Source of the DNA: a virus
Strand: one strand, 5' to 3'
DNA: 64,000 nt
IMG/VR virus record: IMGVR_UViG_3300009103_000004
Coordinates: 103,190-167,189 of that record
Made by a program: the position numbers and the translations under genes. Every line of letters starts with the position of its first letter. Position 1 is the first letter of the stretch. The notes under the pieces were generated by a model. That model did no database searches. It worked only from the letters and a program-made list of their open reading frames with translations, and was not told the origin of the DNA. Positions 1,340-28,792 of the stretch are shown in pieces.

Positions 1340-1684
1340 CTAAGATTTTGATATGTTCTTGTTAAACTTAAGTAGCCCCGAATCAGTGATTACCTTGTCC
1401 ACTACGAGAGTCATGGTACTAAGTATGTCACCTTGTGCCTCTTGCTGCTTATCATTAATGTCAGCTTGAGCGCTAACAAAATTACTCATTGCAAGAGTTC
1501 CGATACCCAGCTCCTTGACTACAGTAGTCAGGGATTTGTTTAGGGTATCCATTTTTTTATCTATCTGCTCACTCAGCTGAACTTGACGCTCCATCAACTG
1601 GATCATCTGTTCCATCATCTGAGTGGGTCCCACTGTCTGTGGGTAGTTTATTACGTTCCCCGATTCGTCTGTTATTATTTCCAT
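1340..1684 (-). CDS. hypothetical coiled-coil protein
   Basis: ORF track; coupled to upstream ORF. Confidence 0.55.
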   Translation of the reverse strand: MEIITDESGNVINYPQTVGPTQMMEQMIQLMERQVQLSEQIDKKMDTLNKSLTTVVKELGIGTLAMSNFVSAQADINDKQQEAQGDILSTMTLVVDKVITDSGLLKFNKNISKS

Positions 1685-1808
1685 CTTCTTCTAGTATTGT
1701 TATTAATTTATCTAACCTGTCACTAATAGAATCTAGTGACTGTACCAATCTAGGTAGCGTTCCCTCGTAGAACTGAACGCCCCTGCTTGTTTCGTGGAAT
1801 TGAATCAT
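1569..1808 (-). CDS. hypothetical phage protein
   Basis: ORF track; starts just after the CCA end of the mini-tmRNA; 3' part overlaps next gene. Confidence 0.5.
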   Translation of the reverse strand: MIQFHETSRGVQFYEGTLPRLVQSLDSISDRLDKLITILEEDGNNNRRIGERNKLPTDSGTHSDDGTDDPVDGASSSAE

Positions 1809-1814
1809 AAAAAA

Positions 1815-1885
1815 TGGTGGAGGTGGGCAGATTCGAACTGCCGTACCATTATCGCACGGACAATGGTCGAAACCGATTCACCCCC
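1815..1885 (-). ncRNA. tmRNA tRNA-like-domain-only RNA (mini-tmRNA, no tag ORF)
   Basis: GGGGGTG AATCGGTTTCGA CCATTGTC CGTGC GATAATGG TAC GGCAG TTCGAAT CTGCC CACCTCC ACCA: 7-bp acceptor stem with G3.U70, A discriminator plus CCA, stemless D-loop ending TTCGA, P2a-like helix closed by 5-nt loop, canonical T-arm. Confidence 0.8.
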
Positions 1886-2253
1886 ACAATGTTAATAAGT
1901 TTAGCTCTTGTACGCCTAGCGTCCTCAAGCGCCCTGTTATAAGTTAGGCGTTTCTTACCAAGTTTCCAAACCCAACCTGTTGGGTGTTGCAAGTATGTTG
2001 CGCCATTCTCCCGAAATGTCCCTGCCCAAAACGGGAGGACAAAACATTTGGATAAGGATACCACCTCTTTGTGGTCTTCATACTTTCTCTTAAACCTAAG
2101 CTCTGGTGCCTTACAGGTACCGTCAGCTAGAAACTCTATAATCTCAACACCTAAGTCTACTCTTGGGTAATCACGTAGCTGCACGTGCCTGTACCTGCTT
2201 CCCACCGCTAATGATCTAGTCCCATCTACAATATTAATTATTTTATCATGCAT
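1849..2253 (-). CDS. hypothetical protein; 3' end overlaps the mini-tmRNA
   Basis: ORF with AAGGA upstream and promoter motif at 2305-2315. Confidence 0.55.
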   Translation of the reverse strand: MHDKIINIVDGTRSLAVGSRYRHVQLRDYPRVDLGVEIIEFLADGTCKAPELRFKRKYEDHKEVVSLSKCFVLPFWAGTFRENGATYLQHPTGWVWKLGKKRLTYNRALEDARRTRAKLINIVGVNRFRPLSVR

Positions 2254-2382: not shown

Positions 2383-2994
2383 CTATTCATATCCCTTAAA
2401 ATCTGCAGGAGATAGTTTTCTTACAAGTTCCTTACCAGTAACCTTGTCCAAGTAAGTAACATTTGGAAAGCTTCCGGGTCCGAATGCATTGGATGATGTG
2501 GGTGTATGGCCCTCATCAACTAGCTTCAAAAAAGTTTTTCTAGCAGGGCCTTCGACATAAGTATTCGCAAAATCCTTCTGCCATTCGCCAAAATGCTTTC
2601 TACTCATAACGCCGGTCGCAACATTACCATATGACTTACCAAGCATTGGACCGCGCATTGCTGCTTTGGGGTCTTTTAAGTAGTCATCATAGGTGCTAAA
2701 AAATTTTCTCATCCCACTAGGATTAAGTCTCTTAGCCTCGTTATACCAAGGGTTAACAGGCTGTTCTTTGCTAACATTCCCTAGAGAGAGCGGTTTCTTT
2801 GGCATTTGCCCAACCTTAGGAACAGATCTCCTAACATTAGGAACAGGTCTTACAATAGCAGAAGATTCTGGATGTTTAAATGATTTTGGTATTGGAGGAG
2901 GAGCTACAGCTCGTGGCTTTAACTTGGGGCGTACCTTGGGCTTTATTCTGGGAACAGCTTCCTTAACCAGCCAATACTTTTCCTTGTTGGTCAT
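2383..2994 (-). CDS. NKEKY-tag family protein (basic, Pro-rich; putative internal virion protein)
   Basis: Starts MTNKEKYWLVKEA-VPRIKPKVRPK. Confidence 0.75.
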   Translation of the reverse strand: MTNKEKYWLVKEAVPRIKPKVRPKLKPRAVAPPPIPKSFKHPESSAIVRPVPNVRRSVPKVGQMPKKPLSLGNVSKEQPVNPWYNEAKRLNPSGMRKFFSTYDDYLKDPKAAMRGPMLGKSYGNVATGVMSRKHFGEWQKDFANTYVEGPARKTFLKLVDEGHTPTSSNAFGPGSFPNVTYLDKVTGKELVRKLSPADFKGYE

Positions 2995-3419
2995 CAACCA
3001 CCTGTGTAATGCGGAAATTGATTTCCAAGAAGTTTCTTTAGTTTCTCACTCTGAGCAGATGAGTCTAAAGTTCCCCAAGACCCAGTACCATATCTTTTAT
3101 TGTAGCTATCTATTGCAGAACGACCAGCAGCGTTGGCTCTATCCTGCTGCCACTTAGCTCTCCCGGTAAGTGGAGGAGGAGCGGGAGCTGGGATCGACAC
3201 GTTTACTGGAGGAACTGGAGGAGGAGATCCAACTGGTGGTTTTTTAGAAACATTACCGGGATTGTGTGGTACAGTTGGCTTAACTACCTTTCCCTTGGCG
3301 GGTGGTGCTATTTGAGCTCCACTGGCAGAATCAAATGTCCCATACGAATCAGAGTATGATCCAGACGTTGAGTTAGACTCAGCTAACTTTACTAAAAAAT
3401 ATTTCTCTTTATTGTTCAT
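2994..3419 (-). CDS. NKEKY-tag family protein
   Basis: Starts MNNKEKYFLVKLA; Pro/Ser-rich body. Confidence 0.75.
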   Translation of the reverse strand: MNNKEKYFLVKLAESNSTSGSYSDSYGTFDSASGAQIAPPAKGKVVKPTVPHNPGNVSKKPPVGSPPPVPPVNVSIPAPAPPPLTGRAKWQQDRANAAGRSAIDSYNKRYGTGSWGTLDSSAQSEKLKKLLGNQFPHYTGG

Positions 3420-3429
3420 AGTTATTTGT

Positions 3430-3738
3430 TCATTTCAGACCGCCAGAAGCAGCTAATATCCCGGCCAAGGCAGCAGGTATCATAGCAGCTTGGTAGGGGT
3501 TCATTTGAAATGGGTTTACGTATTCCCACCAGTTATCTCGTTTTCGCGTAGTAAAGAATCCATCTTCTCCCCGTTGTCTGATGTCTCTAACTTCCTTCTT
3601 ATATTCTGACATTGGCTCGCAATACGTACCATCTTCCTTTTCAACACACCAACGTTCAGGAACTTCTCTCTTGGGATCTGGTTCCTGAATCCCAAAAAAA
3701 GCTTCCTTAACCAGCCAATATTTCTCTTTGTTGTTCAT
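3430..3738 (-). CDS. NKEKY-tag family protein with hydrophobic C-terminus
   Basis: Starts MNNKEKYWLVKEA. Confidence 0.75.
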   Translation of the reverse strand: MNNKEKYWLVKEAFFGIQEPDPKREVPERWCVEKEDGTYCEPMSEYKKEVRDIRQRGEDGFFTTRKRDNWWEYVNPFQMNPYQAAMIPAALAGILAASGGLK

Positions 3739-3740
3739 GG

Positions 3741-4082
3741 TTACTCCTTTCCTTCCTCAGAATTAAGATATTCTAAATTAGCTATATCCTGTTCTGTAAG
3801 TTCTTCGCCTCTCTTTTTCTTAGCCTCTAGGTCTTTCTTTTGTTTTTTTGCTCTTCCGCCTAAAGGTCCCGTAGTATGAAGGGGAGCATAAGCACCTATT
3901 GACGCGCCAGGCATAAAAAGAGACATTAAAGTAGCGTAAGCCCGAACCTTATCCTTATTAAAAGGCTTGGCATTAGGTCCACGCATTCTAGCTACCAAGC
4001 CGGGGTGTTTGATGCCACGCTCTTCCCAGGATTTATATTCCTTTGCAGTTTTGAATAGAAAATATTTCTCTTTGTTACTCAT
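3741..4082 (-). CDS. NKEKY-tag family protein
   Basis: Starts MSNKEKYFLFKTA. Confidence 0.75.
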   Translation of the reverse strand: MSNKEKYFLFKTAKEYKSWEERGIKHPGLVARMRGPNAKPFNKDKVRAYATLMSLFMPGASIGAYAPLHTTGPLGGRAKKQKKDLEAKKKRGEELTEQDIANLEYLNSEEGKE

Positions 4083-4085
4083 CAG

Positions 4086-4631
4086 TTACATTATAGACGC
4101 TCGAAAAGCTTTCAACTTCTCGTTCGCAGTTTGCTCTCGTATCCATTCAAGATTCTTTCTCCGATGCTCTATATACTCTCTTCTCTCTTCTTCAGTAGGT
4201 GGCTCGTGTCCACGTCGTGCCCTCCAGTCATCAAGATCCTTGGTTTCAGAAATATTCTTTTCGTAAACCTCCAACAATCTACCCAAATCCTTCCTATCAA
4301 AACTAGGTGCGCCTACCCTTCCTTCCAAGAAATCATCTGGCGAATTATGAGTACCCTCAATCATACGATCCTCTAAAAGACGATTGACCAATTCTTTGTC
4401 GGTCTCCCCCCAAAACTTATACCAAGGCCGATCTTCCCCATGCATCATCTCATGCACCAAAGGACCTTCAGTCCCCTTATCCCCCAGCCATCCTGTTACG
4501 TTATACTTGTCAGCAGCATCTCCACCCTCAGTTAATCGAATGTCATCAGGAGTGAGCTCTCTATCGTATCCGGCAATACCCAAGCCCATACCAGCTAACT
4601 TAACCAAATAATATTTCTCTTTGTTATTCAT
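4086..4631 (-). CDS. NKEKY-tag family protein
   Basis: Starts MNNKEKYYLVKLA. Confidence 0.75.
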   Translation of the reverse strand: MNNKEKYYLVKLAGMGLGIAGYDRELTPDDIRLTEGGDAADKYNVTGWLGDKGTEGPLVHEMMHGEDRPWYKFWGETDKELVNRLLEDRMIEGTHNSPDDFLEGRVGAPSFDRKDLGRLLEVYEKNISETKDLDDWRARRGHEPPTEEERREYIEHRRKNLEWIREQTANEKLKAFRASIM

Positions 4632-4818
4632 TTTCTATTTTAATTAAAAAACAACCTATGTTCTTACTTAGCTGTGTAACTCGTTCCAGAGCTTCTTCTT
4701 TTTTCTTACCCCGCATTTTTTTAGCTTCCTCATAAAGGTCCAGTATAAAGTCATTAGTTATCTTATGTTTAACCACGCCAACTACTTTATCTTCCTTACT
4801 CAAGGTGACTGATTCCAT
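4624..4818 (-). CDS. small hypothetical protein (lacks the tag)
   Basis: Fills the gap between tag-family genes with overlapping start/stop. Confidence 0.6.
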   Translation of the reverse strand: MESVTLSKEDKVVGVVKHKITNDFILDLYEEAKKMRGKKKEEALERVTQLSKNIGCFLIKIENE

Positions 4819-5546
4819 TAAGGGTTATACTTACTAGAGGTACTAGGAGAATATATATCCCTAAGCGCACCAGACATAGGACCCTCTTCAGCCCAGCCTC
4901 GTTGGAACTCAAGGTCGTCAAGGTCGTCATAAACAGAACCAGGTCTTTTATTGCTCCTAGCCCAGGGAGGTGCGTCGTCGGATATGCCAGTCGGACGTTT
5001 ACCACTTAGAGACCTCTGATAATCTGCCCATCCTGGAGACATAGCAGTCGGTATGGGGTCGCCGGGCTTCCAGAGAGGTGGAGGGTCTTTGGGGAATACG
5101 GGTTTTTTGGGAGTCCGCTTAGTCTTAGGAGCACCAGTTATAGGACTAGTTCCTTTACTTCCTCCTGAAGGAGGACTTTTCCAAGTCGCCTGTGGGGTTC
5201 CAAATCTTTTAAGTTCCGTTTCATTCGGAAACCATTTTCTCATAAATAGCTCTCTTTGTTGTTCGAGAGGCGAATTTCCGCGTAATTCTCTATCGAGAGA
5301 CTTCGGCTTAGCTGTCACCTCTTTTTGTTTACCAGTTATAGGACTAGTTCCTTTACTTCCTCCTGAAGGATTTGTAACGGCTGCTGTTTGCTTGCCTGAT
5401 GGTGGCTTGGACTTAATAGGAAATACGTCTGTGTCCCTTGGGACTTGTATCGGCTTAGCTAAAACCTTGCTAGGCTTGGGCCTAACCTTAGGTCTAATCT
5501 TAGGTATAGCGTACTTAACCAAATAATATTTCTCTTTGTTGTTCAT
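4818..5546 (-). CDS. NKEKY-tag family protein
   Basis: Starts MNNKEKYYLVKYA-IPKIRPKVRPK; internal duplicated peptide PSGGSKGTSPITG. Confidence 0.75.
   Translation of the reverse strand: MNNKEKYYLVKYAIPKIRPKVRPKPSKVLAKPIQVPRDTDVFPIKSKPPSGKQTAAVTNPSGGSKGTSPITGKQKEVTAKPKSLDRELRGNSPLEQQRELFMRKWFPNETELKRFGTPQATWKSPPSGGSKGTSPITGAPKTKRTPKKPVFPKDPPPLWKPGDPIPTAMSPGWADYQRSLSGKRPTGISDDAPPWARSNKRPGSVYDDLDDLEFQRGWAEEGPMSGALRDIYSPSTSSKYNP
5133..5370. repeat. 40-bp perfect direct repeat (5133-5172 and 5331-5370)
   Basis: accagttataggactagttcctttacttcctcctgaagga occurs twice, in frame. Confidence 0.9.
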
Positions 5547-6154
5547 TTCCTTGGGGTCATGTTATAGCCTGTTATTTCTTCTTTGTTAGTGGTAAGATTC
5601 GTGTTAATTGGAGTCCCAGTTGCGTAAGTTCTCGTAGGAGCATTTCCAGTCATGGCAAAAGAACCTAACGCTTGTTGCCAAGGACTCTGCGCAGTACCTG
5701 GTTGGTTTGTAGTAATCTGATCCTTAGTTATATTGCCGTTCTGCATCACTGTCTCAGCACTAACATGTTCCCCGAACTGCTTGGCTTGATTGTTCATGCC
5801 TGGTGTAGGATTAGCAGATATTCTATCTCCCATAGTGTTCATGTCTGAGCCATATAAAGAAGTGGTAGCTTTGTTTTGCGCCCAAGTCTTGGCTCCTTGT
5901 GGTGCAAAACTATTCCACATGGTGCCCGCCATACCTACCAGTGGCTGGGCAACCGTATTGAACATAGCGCCAGCTTGCTGTCCAGCTTGCCCAGCTTGCT
6001 GTAATACGTTAGTTGGTTTTTCACTCATTACTCCTGCGGGAGGTCCTGAGAAAGCTGCACCTATCGAGCCTGCAGGATGTTTGAAAAAGTCTCCTACAGA
6101 ATAGTTCTGTTGGTTGGCTAACTTAGTTAAATATAATTTTTCTTTGTTGTTCAT
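5543..6154 (-). CDS. NKEKY-tag family protein (Gln/Gly/Thr-rich)
   Basis: Starts MNNKEKLYLTKLA. Confidence 0.75.
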   Translation of the reverse strand: MNNKEKLYLTKLANQQNYSVGDFFKHPAGSIGAAFSGPPAGVMSEKPTNVLQQAGQAGQQAGAMFNTVAQPLVGMAGTMWNSFAPQGAKTWAQNKATTSLYGSDMNTMGDRISANPTPGMNNQAKQFGEHVSAETVMQNGNITKDQITTNQPGTAQSPWQQALGSFAMTGNAPTRTYATGTPINTNLTTNKEEITGYNMTPRK

Positions 6155-6156
6155 AT

Positions 6157-6702
6157 TCATCGAGTACTGTTTTGATCCAAAGCACGAGAGTTAGGAAATG
6201 ATCTAGAATCCAGTTGACTTCCTACTACACCGCCAGCACCCATAGCAGCAGGAACAGCAAGAACAGAAGCGGGGATGCCGCCCTTTTGAGCTGCCTGTCC
6301 TGACAAACCTCCGCCAGATGGGTTAAACTTTAGCTCATCAACTACAGAACGAGGTATTACAGGAGCAGTTGTATCCATTTTCTTAGGTGCCTGCAGTTTA
6401 GGTCTGGGGGTTGAAGGCGAAGCTGCTGGCGGAGCTGCTGCTGGAGCTGGCCTCTTAGGCATGGGCATAACGTTTGGTGTCTCTCCCTTTGAAGGATTTG
6501 TAGCAGCTCCTGGTCTCCTACCACTAGAACGAAGATGTTCAAACGAATCTTTGTTCTCACGTACGCGTTTAAGATAATGCTCTAAATGAAGATCTCTATG
6601 ACCAAAGCGTGGGTCAGCCTTAGGCCTTGGGCGAGGATTTGGCCTAACCTTTAACCTAGGAACAGCTTCCTTAACTAAAAAATATTTCTCCTTATTATTC
6701 AT
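6157..6702 (-). CDS. NKEKY-tag family protein
   Basis: Starts MNNKEKYFLVKEA-VPRLKVRP. Confidence 0.75.
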   Translation of the reverse strand: MNNKEKYFLVKEAVPRLKVRPNPRPRPKADPRFGHRDLHLEHYLKRVRENKDSFEHLRSSGRRPGAATNPSKGETPNVMPMPKRPAPAAAPPAASPSTPRPKLQAPKKMDTTAPVIPRSVVDELKFNPSGGGLSGQAAQKGGIPASVLAVPAAMGAGGVVGSQLDSRSFPNSRALDQNSTR

Positions 6703-20345: not shown

Positions 20346-20422
20346 TGGTGGGCCCTGTCGGGTTCGAACCGACGACCTGCCGATTATGAGTCGGACGCTC
20401 TAACCAACTGAGCTAAGGGCCC
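20346..20422 (-). tRNA. tRNA with CAT anticodon, most like tRNA-Ile2 (lysidine type)
   Basis: GGGCCCTTAGCTCAGTTGGTTAGAGCGTCCGACTCATAATCGGCAGGTCGTCGGTTCGAACCCGACAGGGCCCACCA; full cloverleaf, encoded CCA, acceptor resembles ileX-type rather than initiator Met. Confidence 0.9.
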
Positions 20423-27986: not shown

Positions 27987-28792
27987 TACATGTAGTACGG
28001 ACGTCCTAGGTTGTCATATGGGGACTTGGGGGGAGCTCCTCCAGCACCGCGAGCACTAGCAAGGCCGGACACTATCGTTGTTAATAACGTACCAAACTTT
28101 CCTAGCCCCAACAAATATTTAGCTACTAAGTAGCCAACGCCGCCACCCATTGCACCGCCAACTAGTTGGTTTAATCGTCTAGTTTGTTGAGCGTTTAAGT
28201 ATTGTACTTGATTAGCCAACTCTTGTTTCTGCCTAAGTGTTAACTCAGTATCTCTATATATTTTGGCTATAACATCGTTAGAGCTAGATAATCCGTATGC
28301 AATTTTCACATGATTTTCTTTTAGAAGATCCTCTTCTTGTTCTTCGGTAGTTCTTCTATCTAAAGGTGCGTTCTCATCAGCTTCCATAGCATTATCGAAA
28401 TCAAATTTATCTTTAAACAGCCCGCCAACAAAAGGTATCTTACTAGACCAGTCCTTGTTCCTAAGCATAAAGCCTAATCCGCCCAAGCCTAAAGATCCAA
28501 GTCCGCCGCCTATCAGTGCCCCCTTACCAGCATTACCAGAAAATGCCCCTATAAGTCCTCCCAAGCCAGCACCAACAAGACCGCCTGTGGCCATACTGTT
28601 AGCCCAACCAGGTATGGAAACATCGTTGACCTTTATATCTTTAGTGGACCTGTATAGAGGACCCATTAATGTAGGCATAACTTTGTGATGAGTCCAAGCA
28701 CCTAGCCTATTAGCCGGAGAGTCTGCAAGCTCAACGCCAGAGTTCAACCCCTTAGGAAGACGTTGACTAATAGCCAATTTACAAAGAGACAT
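27986..28792 (-). CDS. putative virion protein (Gly-zipper)
   Basis: MSLCKLA start; GGLVGAGLGGLIG segments; internal VKIA. Confidence 0.6.
   Translation of the reverse strand: MSLCKLAISQRLPKGLNSGVELADSPANRLGAWTHHKVMPTLMGPLYRSTKDIKVNDVSIPGWANSMATGGLVGAGLGGLIGAFSGNAGKGALIGGGLGSLGLGGLGFMLRNKDWSSKIPFVGGLFKDKFDFDNAMEADENAPLDRRTTEEQEEDLLKENHVKIAYGLSSSNDVIAKIYRDTELTLRQKQELANQVQYLNAQQTRRLNQLVGGAMGGGVGYLVAKYLLGLGKFGTLLTTIVSGLASARGAGGAPPKSPYDNLGRPYYM

Follow-up and report, generated by a model that had tools for sequence, protein, structure and literature searches.

The minus strand of the analyzed stretch of DNA (the window, 64 kb) contains at positions 1815-1885 a 71-nt mini-tmRNA gene that consists of the tRNA-like domain (TLD) only. 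It is a real, well-formed RNA gene, far beyond a chance match, and it belongs to a large class of phage RNAs with covarying helices. The element holds no tag frame, and no SmpB gene was found in the phage record. Judging from its sequence determinants, the RNA would probably be charged with alanine, bind host SmpB and compete with host tmRNA, so that SsrA tagging would be suppressed. The element is a new example of an already published kind, represented by mycobacteriophage DS6A; the kind itself is not new. The interest of the new example lies in its small size, its location in a large phage with hardly any known relatives, the selection for alanine identity at the class level, and the overlap with an upstream ORF.

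Structure of the mini-tmRNA gene

The Rfam tmRNA model RF00023 matches the element at exactly 1815-1885 with a score of 60.3 bits (E 4e-21 in the 64-kb window). The match spans model positions 1-374, with 5 nt in place of 308 model positions. As regards mitochondrial tmRNA (mt-tmRNA), Rfam retains just the top match per clan, here RF00023, and the genome is that of a phage. The preliminary description had suggested a search with Rfam tmRNA models, and the score above the gathering cut-off of 47 bears out its reading. The second model, R1, is a covariance model built from 54 other phage mini-tmRNAs, with the window sequence left out. It aligns with positions 1815-1885 end to end and yields 66.7 bits (E 5.6e-13), within the range of 56-78 bits observed for 60 further phage members.

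All features initially read from the minus strand, that is, the acceptor stem with G3.U, the ACCA end, the stemless D-loop, the TAC linker, and the T-arm, are present. Both the Rfam and the R1 alignment match the 5' strand of the acceptor stem (1879-1885, RNA positions 1-7, with G3 at 1883) to 1819-1825 as its pairing partner. The resulting stem has 7 bp, and direct reading places G3 opposite U at 1821. The 3' strand of the stem, the discriminator A, and the encoded CCA (the last two at 1815-1818) together occupy 1815-1825. The acceptor stem is followed by a 12-nt stemless D-loop of the tmRNA type (1867-1878, RNA positions 8-19) that ends in TTCGA and agrees with the consensus of both RF00023 and R1. 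Next comes the P2a stub (1846-1866), supported by the Rfam alignment and by hairpin folding. It consists of an 8-bp helix (1859-1866 paired with 1846-1853, strands CCATTGTC and GATAATGG as read from the minus strand, with one G.U pair) and the 5-nt loop CGTGC (1854-1858). Alone, this hairpin folds at -7.6 kcal/mol. According to the Rfam and R1 alignments, a 3-nt linker, TAC where the consensus has GAC (1843-1845), connects the stub to the T-arm GGCAG/TTCGAAT/CTGCC with its 5-bp stem and 7-nt T-loop (1826-1842). As far as can be read from the sequence, the determinants of alanylation and of SmpB and EF-Tu binding are intact: G3.U, ACCA, and the consensus of the D-loop and T-loop.

The P2a loop is the site where tmRNA carries the mRNA-like domain and the pseudoknots, and here just 5 nt separate the two P2a strands. 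The 71-nt element contains no resume codon, tag ORF, or stop, and neither pseudoknots PK1-PK4 nor replacements for them; the 308 positions missing from the RF00023 alignment agree with the earlier statement that the tag-coding domain, resume codon, and pseudoknots are absent and that a 5-nt loop caps P2a.

The TLD fold, at -27.4 kcal/mol, is not the minimum free energy (MFE) fold, which has -32.1 kcal/mol. A likely reason is that the D-loop and the T-loop each carry TTCGA and are able to pair with each other. The alternative fold retains the acceptor stem. This mismatch is a point against the proposed reading, but we do not count it against the status of the element as a gene.

Several other identities of the element were considered and rejected. 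In a permuted (two-piece) tmRNA the order of the halves is exchanged, whereas here the 5' half precedes the 3' half in one 71-nt unit. ARAGORN with relaxed thresholds proposes a permuted tmRNA with a tag, but under these settings 20 mostly scattered matches are obtained in the genome, and the proposed tag is out of frame inside the upstream ORF. An ordinary tRNA (RF00005) is not compatible with an element that has no anticodon arm and no D-stem. Finally, an ssrA-derived attachment-site (attP) fragment would not explain the presence of the 5' TLD half, and no PF00589 integrase is found in the 167-kb record. Three Staphylococcus phage records contain stretches of 30-33 nt with 93-94% identity to the 3' half of the element (1815-1847, minus strand); these stretches are probably ssrA-derived attachment-site cores.

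The preliminary description had also proposed ARAGORN as a check. At default settings the program does not call the element, and its sole call in the window is tRNA-Met at 20346-20422. Thus, routine annotation misses TLD-only tmRNAs, as illustrated by ARAGORN here and by the GenBank record of DS6A.

The phage and its locus

The window is the right-hand part of a 167,189-bp IMG/VR virus record with an estimated completeness of 94%. Nearly all genes are on the minus strand, as is the mini-tmRNA. A few proteins could be assigned to phage families (DNA polymerase, an UvsX-like recombinase, portal, helicase, and an anti-repressor-like one), while the majority have no PHROG or Pfam match. The first 6 kb had no near-identical counterpart among 50,697 records of cultured phages. 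In a tblastn search of cultured phage records with the DNA polymerase, all matches were below 30% identity, and hence the phage has no cultured relative. For host inference, the 3' half of the element was searched for exactly in 185,579 prokaryote genomes, with 0 matches.

Two RNAs in the whole record exceed the Rfam thresholds, tRNA-Met and the mini-tmRNA. The tRNA (20346-20422, minus strand) has a CAT anticodon, is the sole tRNA of the 167-kb phage and, like the mini-tmRNA, has an encoded CCA end. The 167-kb record contains no second mini-tmRNA, full-length tmRNA, or other tmRNA-like piece. It also contains no gene for SmpB, a release factor with the RF-1 domain (ArfB-like), peptidyl-tRNA hydrolase (Pth), or tyrosine integrase. 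A gene array lies upstream of the mini-tmRNA, which is found at its downstream end: at 2383-6702, eight or nine consecutive minus-strand genes share a near-identical 13-residue N-terminus (MNNKEKYFLVKEA and variants) and then diverge fully. One distant gene, at genome position 10034 outside the window, begins in nearly the same way; the common N-terminus could be a leader for targeting or cleavage.

The mini-tmRNA gene overlaps by 37 nt with an upstream 134-aa ORF (1849-2253, minus strand) that is not part of the RNA. The final 12 codons and the TAA stop of this ORF are inside the RNA gene, the TAA being within the 3' strand of the P2a helix. Such an overlap of an RNA gene with an upstream ORF is unusual. 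The ATG of the ORF is preceded by an AAGGA ribosome-binding motif, while the codon-usage score calculated without the overlap is weak (0.23; long ORFs in the genome average 0.40). The protein has no Pfam or PHROG match, its ESM Atlas model (pLDDT 0.40) provides no structural lead, and its homologues among 5.8 billion proteins come from the same phage population only. Thus, the 134-aa ORF is plausible as a genuine gene, not proven. On the other side, the ACCA end is followed by a run of six T's, and the ATG of a 79-aa ORF (1569-1808, minus strand) is 6 nt past ACCA; gene callers report this ORF in other contigs of the same phage. A scan for sigma-70 promoters and terminators revealed nothing convincing adjoining the mini-tmRNA gene, and hence the RNA would be cut from a longer transcript.

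The same region was found in several metagenome assemblies (L086-L092) with 99-100% identity, and every contig that covers the RNA completely has the identical RNA sequence. A search of viral contigs with the 134-aa and 758-aa proteins revealed no diverged orthologue of the locus, and the element's own T-arm pattern retrieved from metagenome contigs only a 68-nt type represented by L058. As all related contigs are at least 99% identical, selection at this locus is not measurable, and the case rests on the class. The preliminary description had proposed to look for covarying homologs in related phage contigs: covariation is observed in a class of more than 100 distinct phage sequences, and the phage's own relatives are all at least 99% identical. 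Another concern raised initially was that this copy could be a decaying deletion of a full-length tmRNA. No relative with a full-length tmRNA at this site was found, and the architecture with a capped helix recurs with covariation.

A class of phage mini-tmRNAs

Mini-tmRNAs of 62-85 nt are carried by at least 144 IMG/VR viral contigs and represent at least 106 distinct sequences. They were collected with two patterns. The strict one, in which tmRNA-typical loop bases and GGGG/C.CC ACCA were fixed and the stems were left free, identified units of 62-84 nt in 84 viral contigs; the looser one matched at least 119 viral contigs. Among the matches listed, 60 of the 63 newly fetched looser-pattern contigs score 56-78 bits on R1. 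The listed sequences form two size groups, 62-74 nt with a plain hairpin, as in the window element, and 77-85 nt with a structured interior, as in DS6A. YAC linkers, such as TAC of the window element, are also present in the hairpin-type members L011, L058, L062, and L084.

Covariation was analyzed for three helices in the first 54 distinct phage sequences. The helix cells are paired in 95.8% of cases, and in 13 of the 19 pairs both bases vary. Covariation scores 0.718, compared with 0.155 for shuffled sequences and at most 0.143 with the partners slid. In P2a, changes on both sides are observed for all pairs (7/7). The cells of the T-stem are 100% paired, and double changes occur in four of its five pairs. 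The remaining 6 of the 19 pairs are invariant; with the exception of the G3.U pair, most of their bases were set by the search pattern, and the D-loop TTCGA in the class alignment was likewise imposed by the pattern. The patterns placed no constraint on the base opposite G3, and still G3.U is found in 105 of the 106 distinct members among the matches listed. This near-invariance argues for selection on alanine charging, beyond SmpB binding.

When the strict pattern was applied to one genome each of 185,579 prokaryote species, there was one match, in a 6.9-kb contig of a metagenome-assembled genome. Hence, the class is essentially viral and is no common prophage cargo. The lone prokaryote match, L093, is assigned to Gemmatimonadota and belongs to the tRNA-adjacent type; it may be a mis-binned phage contig. 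By reading of the flanks, the mini-tmRNA adjoins ordinary tRNA genes at L011, L056, L070, and L093. Among the papers searched by text, none presents such RNAs as a class widespread in phages. The class data thus present TLD-only tmRNAs as a widespread and almost exclusively viral RNA family with the alanine identity pair under selection.

At some loci the RNA gene is closely associated with the end of the upstream ORF. Among the matches listed, 10 of 107 distinct loci have an upstream ORF (at least 60 aa) with a TAG stop that spans G1 (TA|G), compared with 1 of 710 control positions (loci of this kind and the like include L033, L035, L043, L058, L062, L076, L078, L080, L120, and L147). At 16 more loci, that of the window among them, the ORF extends 3-45 nt into the RNA, and its stop is often the TGA of GGGGNNTGA. 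Once cut by RNase P, such messages would lack a stop codon. One might imagine that the mini-tmRNA gene is coupled in cis to the upstream gene, so that cleavage at G1 would produce a defined non-stop mRNA beside a tag-less rescuer. If so, the phage would set the fate of the upstream protein, or the timing of its synthesis, via its own rescue RNA; we consider such coupling quite improbable.

Possible functions and comparison with known systems

From the intact determinants we infer the following order of events. The mini-tmRNA would probably be transcribed together with its minus-strand neighbors; cleavage by host RNase P would generate the 5' end at G1, and the 3' end would be trimmed back to the encoded CCA. 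The RNA would then receive alanine from host AlaRS by virtue of G3.U and be bound by host SmpB together with EF-Tu. For SmpB as well as for stalled ribosomes, the charged RNA would be a competitor of host tmRNA. With no resume codon or tag frame, it could add one alanine at most and no degradation tag. On balance, SsrA tagging and the mRNA decay linked to it would be suppressed during infection. Pure titration of SmpB fits the published inhibition of tmRNA by a similar RNA, but would not explain the near-invariant G3.U; hence, the mini-tmRNA is expected to enter the ribosome.

An alternative with the same participants is productive rescue without a tag. The alanyl-mini-tmRNA and SmpB would take over the nascent chain, and host ArfA/RF2, ArfB or, after drop-off, Pth would release it, so that ribosomes are recycled and phage proteins stay untagged. 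The same retention of G3.U and the acceptor end in 105 of the 106 members listed implies that charging matters, and mitochondria and some plastids have retained CDS-less tmRNAs alongside SmpB, for which a role in dealing with incomplete mRNAs is still assumed (PMC11915505). Judging from TLD-SmpB structures, the P2a stub with its 8 bp is comparable to a long variable arm, which makes entry into the A site sterically plausible (PMC3022190). However, after the transfer the A site would be empty again, and a host release factor would be needed, as the phage has no release factor, ArfB-like protein, or Pth. Moreover, the sole experimental datum for such an RNA, as the source is cited by others, is inhibition of tmRNA (Mao 2009, cited in PMC4131195 and PMC11915505). 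We thus regard productive rescue as rather unlikely. Clearly less probable is a role outside trans-translation, either as a decoy or blocker of a host defence system or nuclease that reads tmRNA- or tRNA-like RNA (CoCoNuTs with SmpB-like domains, RNase R), or as a mere tRNA-like processing signal that punctuates a polycistronic transcript. There are defence systems that have SmpB-like OB folds and for which tmRNA binding is predicted (PMC11090510), and fragments of tRNA and tmRNA are anti-defence RNAs in another phage system (PMC11662646), but within the window no defence or counter-defence gene is linked to the RNA. Mini-tmRNA genes often directly abut the upstream CDS, as a processing signal might; an RNase P signal alone, however, needs neither the tmRNA-specific D-loop nor G3.U, and both are conserved.

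The element could also be a non-functional relic, either an internally deleted full-length tmRNA of a phage or host, or an ssrA fragment at an attachment site. Phages can pick up ssrA pieces by integration (PMC9004378), the 3' half is 94% identical to the stretches in the three Staphylococcus phage records, and no diverged orthologue was found that could show purifying selection at the locus. Against this explanation, all functional elements are intact, a small loop closes the helix cleanly, and the same architecture with compensatory changes is seen in more than 100 distinct phage sequences. An attachment-site fragment holds only the 3' part, whereas here both TLD halves are present; in addition, integrase is absent from the 167-kb record, and the class is almost absent from bacterial genomes. 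A relic is therefore highly improbable. Competition with host tmRNA is the function that we prefer, and if RNAs of this class block or replace host trans-translation, they would constitute a common, unrecognized means by which phages control ribosome rescue.

The closest published case is provided by mycobacteriophage DS6A, classed as "TLD only" by Hudson, Lau & Williams 2014 (PMC4131195; tmID 11587 in the tmRNA Website). As phage TLD-only tmRNAs had thus been published in 2009 and 2014, the novelty claimed in the preliminary description was overstated. According to the citing papers, a DS6A-like TLD-only RNA, chargeable or not, strongly inhibits E. coli tmRNA, perhaps via SmpB titration (Mao 2009, cited in PMC4131195 and PMC11915505). 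Both functions suggested in the preliminary description, tag-less rescue and SmpB titration, have already been discussed for DS6A (PMC4131195, PMC11915505). The DS6A case appears again in the 2025 tmRNA database paper, alongside mitochondrial forms and CDS-less plastid genes of about 65 bp (PMC11915505). The DS6A RNA is located at about 28478-28560 of JN698994 (979-1061 of L094), in the gap between gp33 and gp34, and is unannotated in the GenBank record. Both it and the window element are phage-borne and unpermuted, with the 5' and 3' TLD halves joined by a short P2a stub and without a tag frame; on R1 they score 59.7 and 66.7 bits, respectively. The DS6A RNA has about 83 nt, a structured interior with an AAAACC-type motif, and no encoded CCA, whereas the window element has 71 nt, a plain 8-bp hairpin with a 5-nt loop, the TAC linker, and encoded ACCA. 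The two phages are unrelated, the window phage coming from marine metagenomes.

The nearest sequences are the 68-nt hairpin-type RNAs of L058, L062, and L085, with 79-80% identity (the type is also found at metagenome loci L095-L098). They share with the window element the acceptor stem, the T-stem, a P2a starting with CCAT, the YAC linker, and the T-run and ATG after ACCA, and differ in the rest of P2a through compensatory changes. These RNA genes directly follow a gene for a DnaB-like helicase; the phage contigs that carry them are small and unrelated and have no neighboring proteins in common with the window.

RNase P processes tmRNA, which accepts alanine and is a ligand of EF-Tu (PMC3985003); crystal structures demonstrate that SmpB binds the isolated TLD (PMC3022190). 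The window element is essentially the minimal TLD construct that structural biologists have made by hand, and it is a very small and cleanly built natural case in a large marine phage with almost no known relatives. Its features in common with bacterial tmRNA (SsrA, RF00023) are the acceptor stem with G3.U, the D-loop, the T-arm, ACCA, and the start of P2a; unlike bacterial tmRNA, it has no resume codon, tag ORF, stop, or pseudoknot, which makes full trans-translation impossible.

CDS-less tmRNAs of jakobid and other mitochondria were reportedly described by Jacob et al. in 2004. Such organellar RNAs, including those encoded by the plastid genes of about 65 bp in Mallomonadaceae (PMC11915505), are likewise TLD-only and tag-less and have a similar size. 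The organellar forms are accompanied by an imported SmpB dedicated to them and are assumed to function for the organelle, whereas the window element belongs to a virus without its own SmpB and likely acts on the host system.
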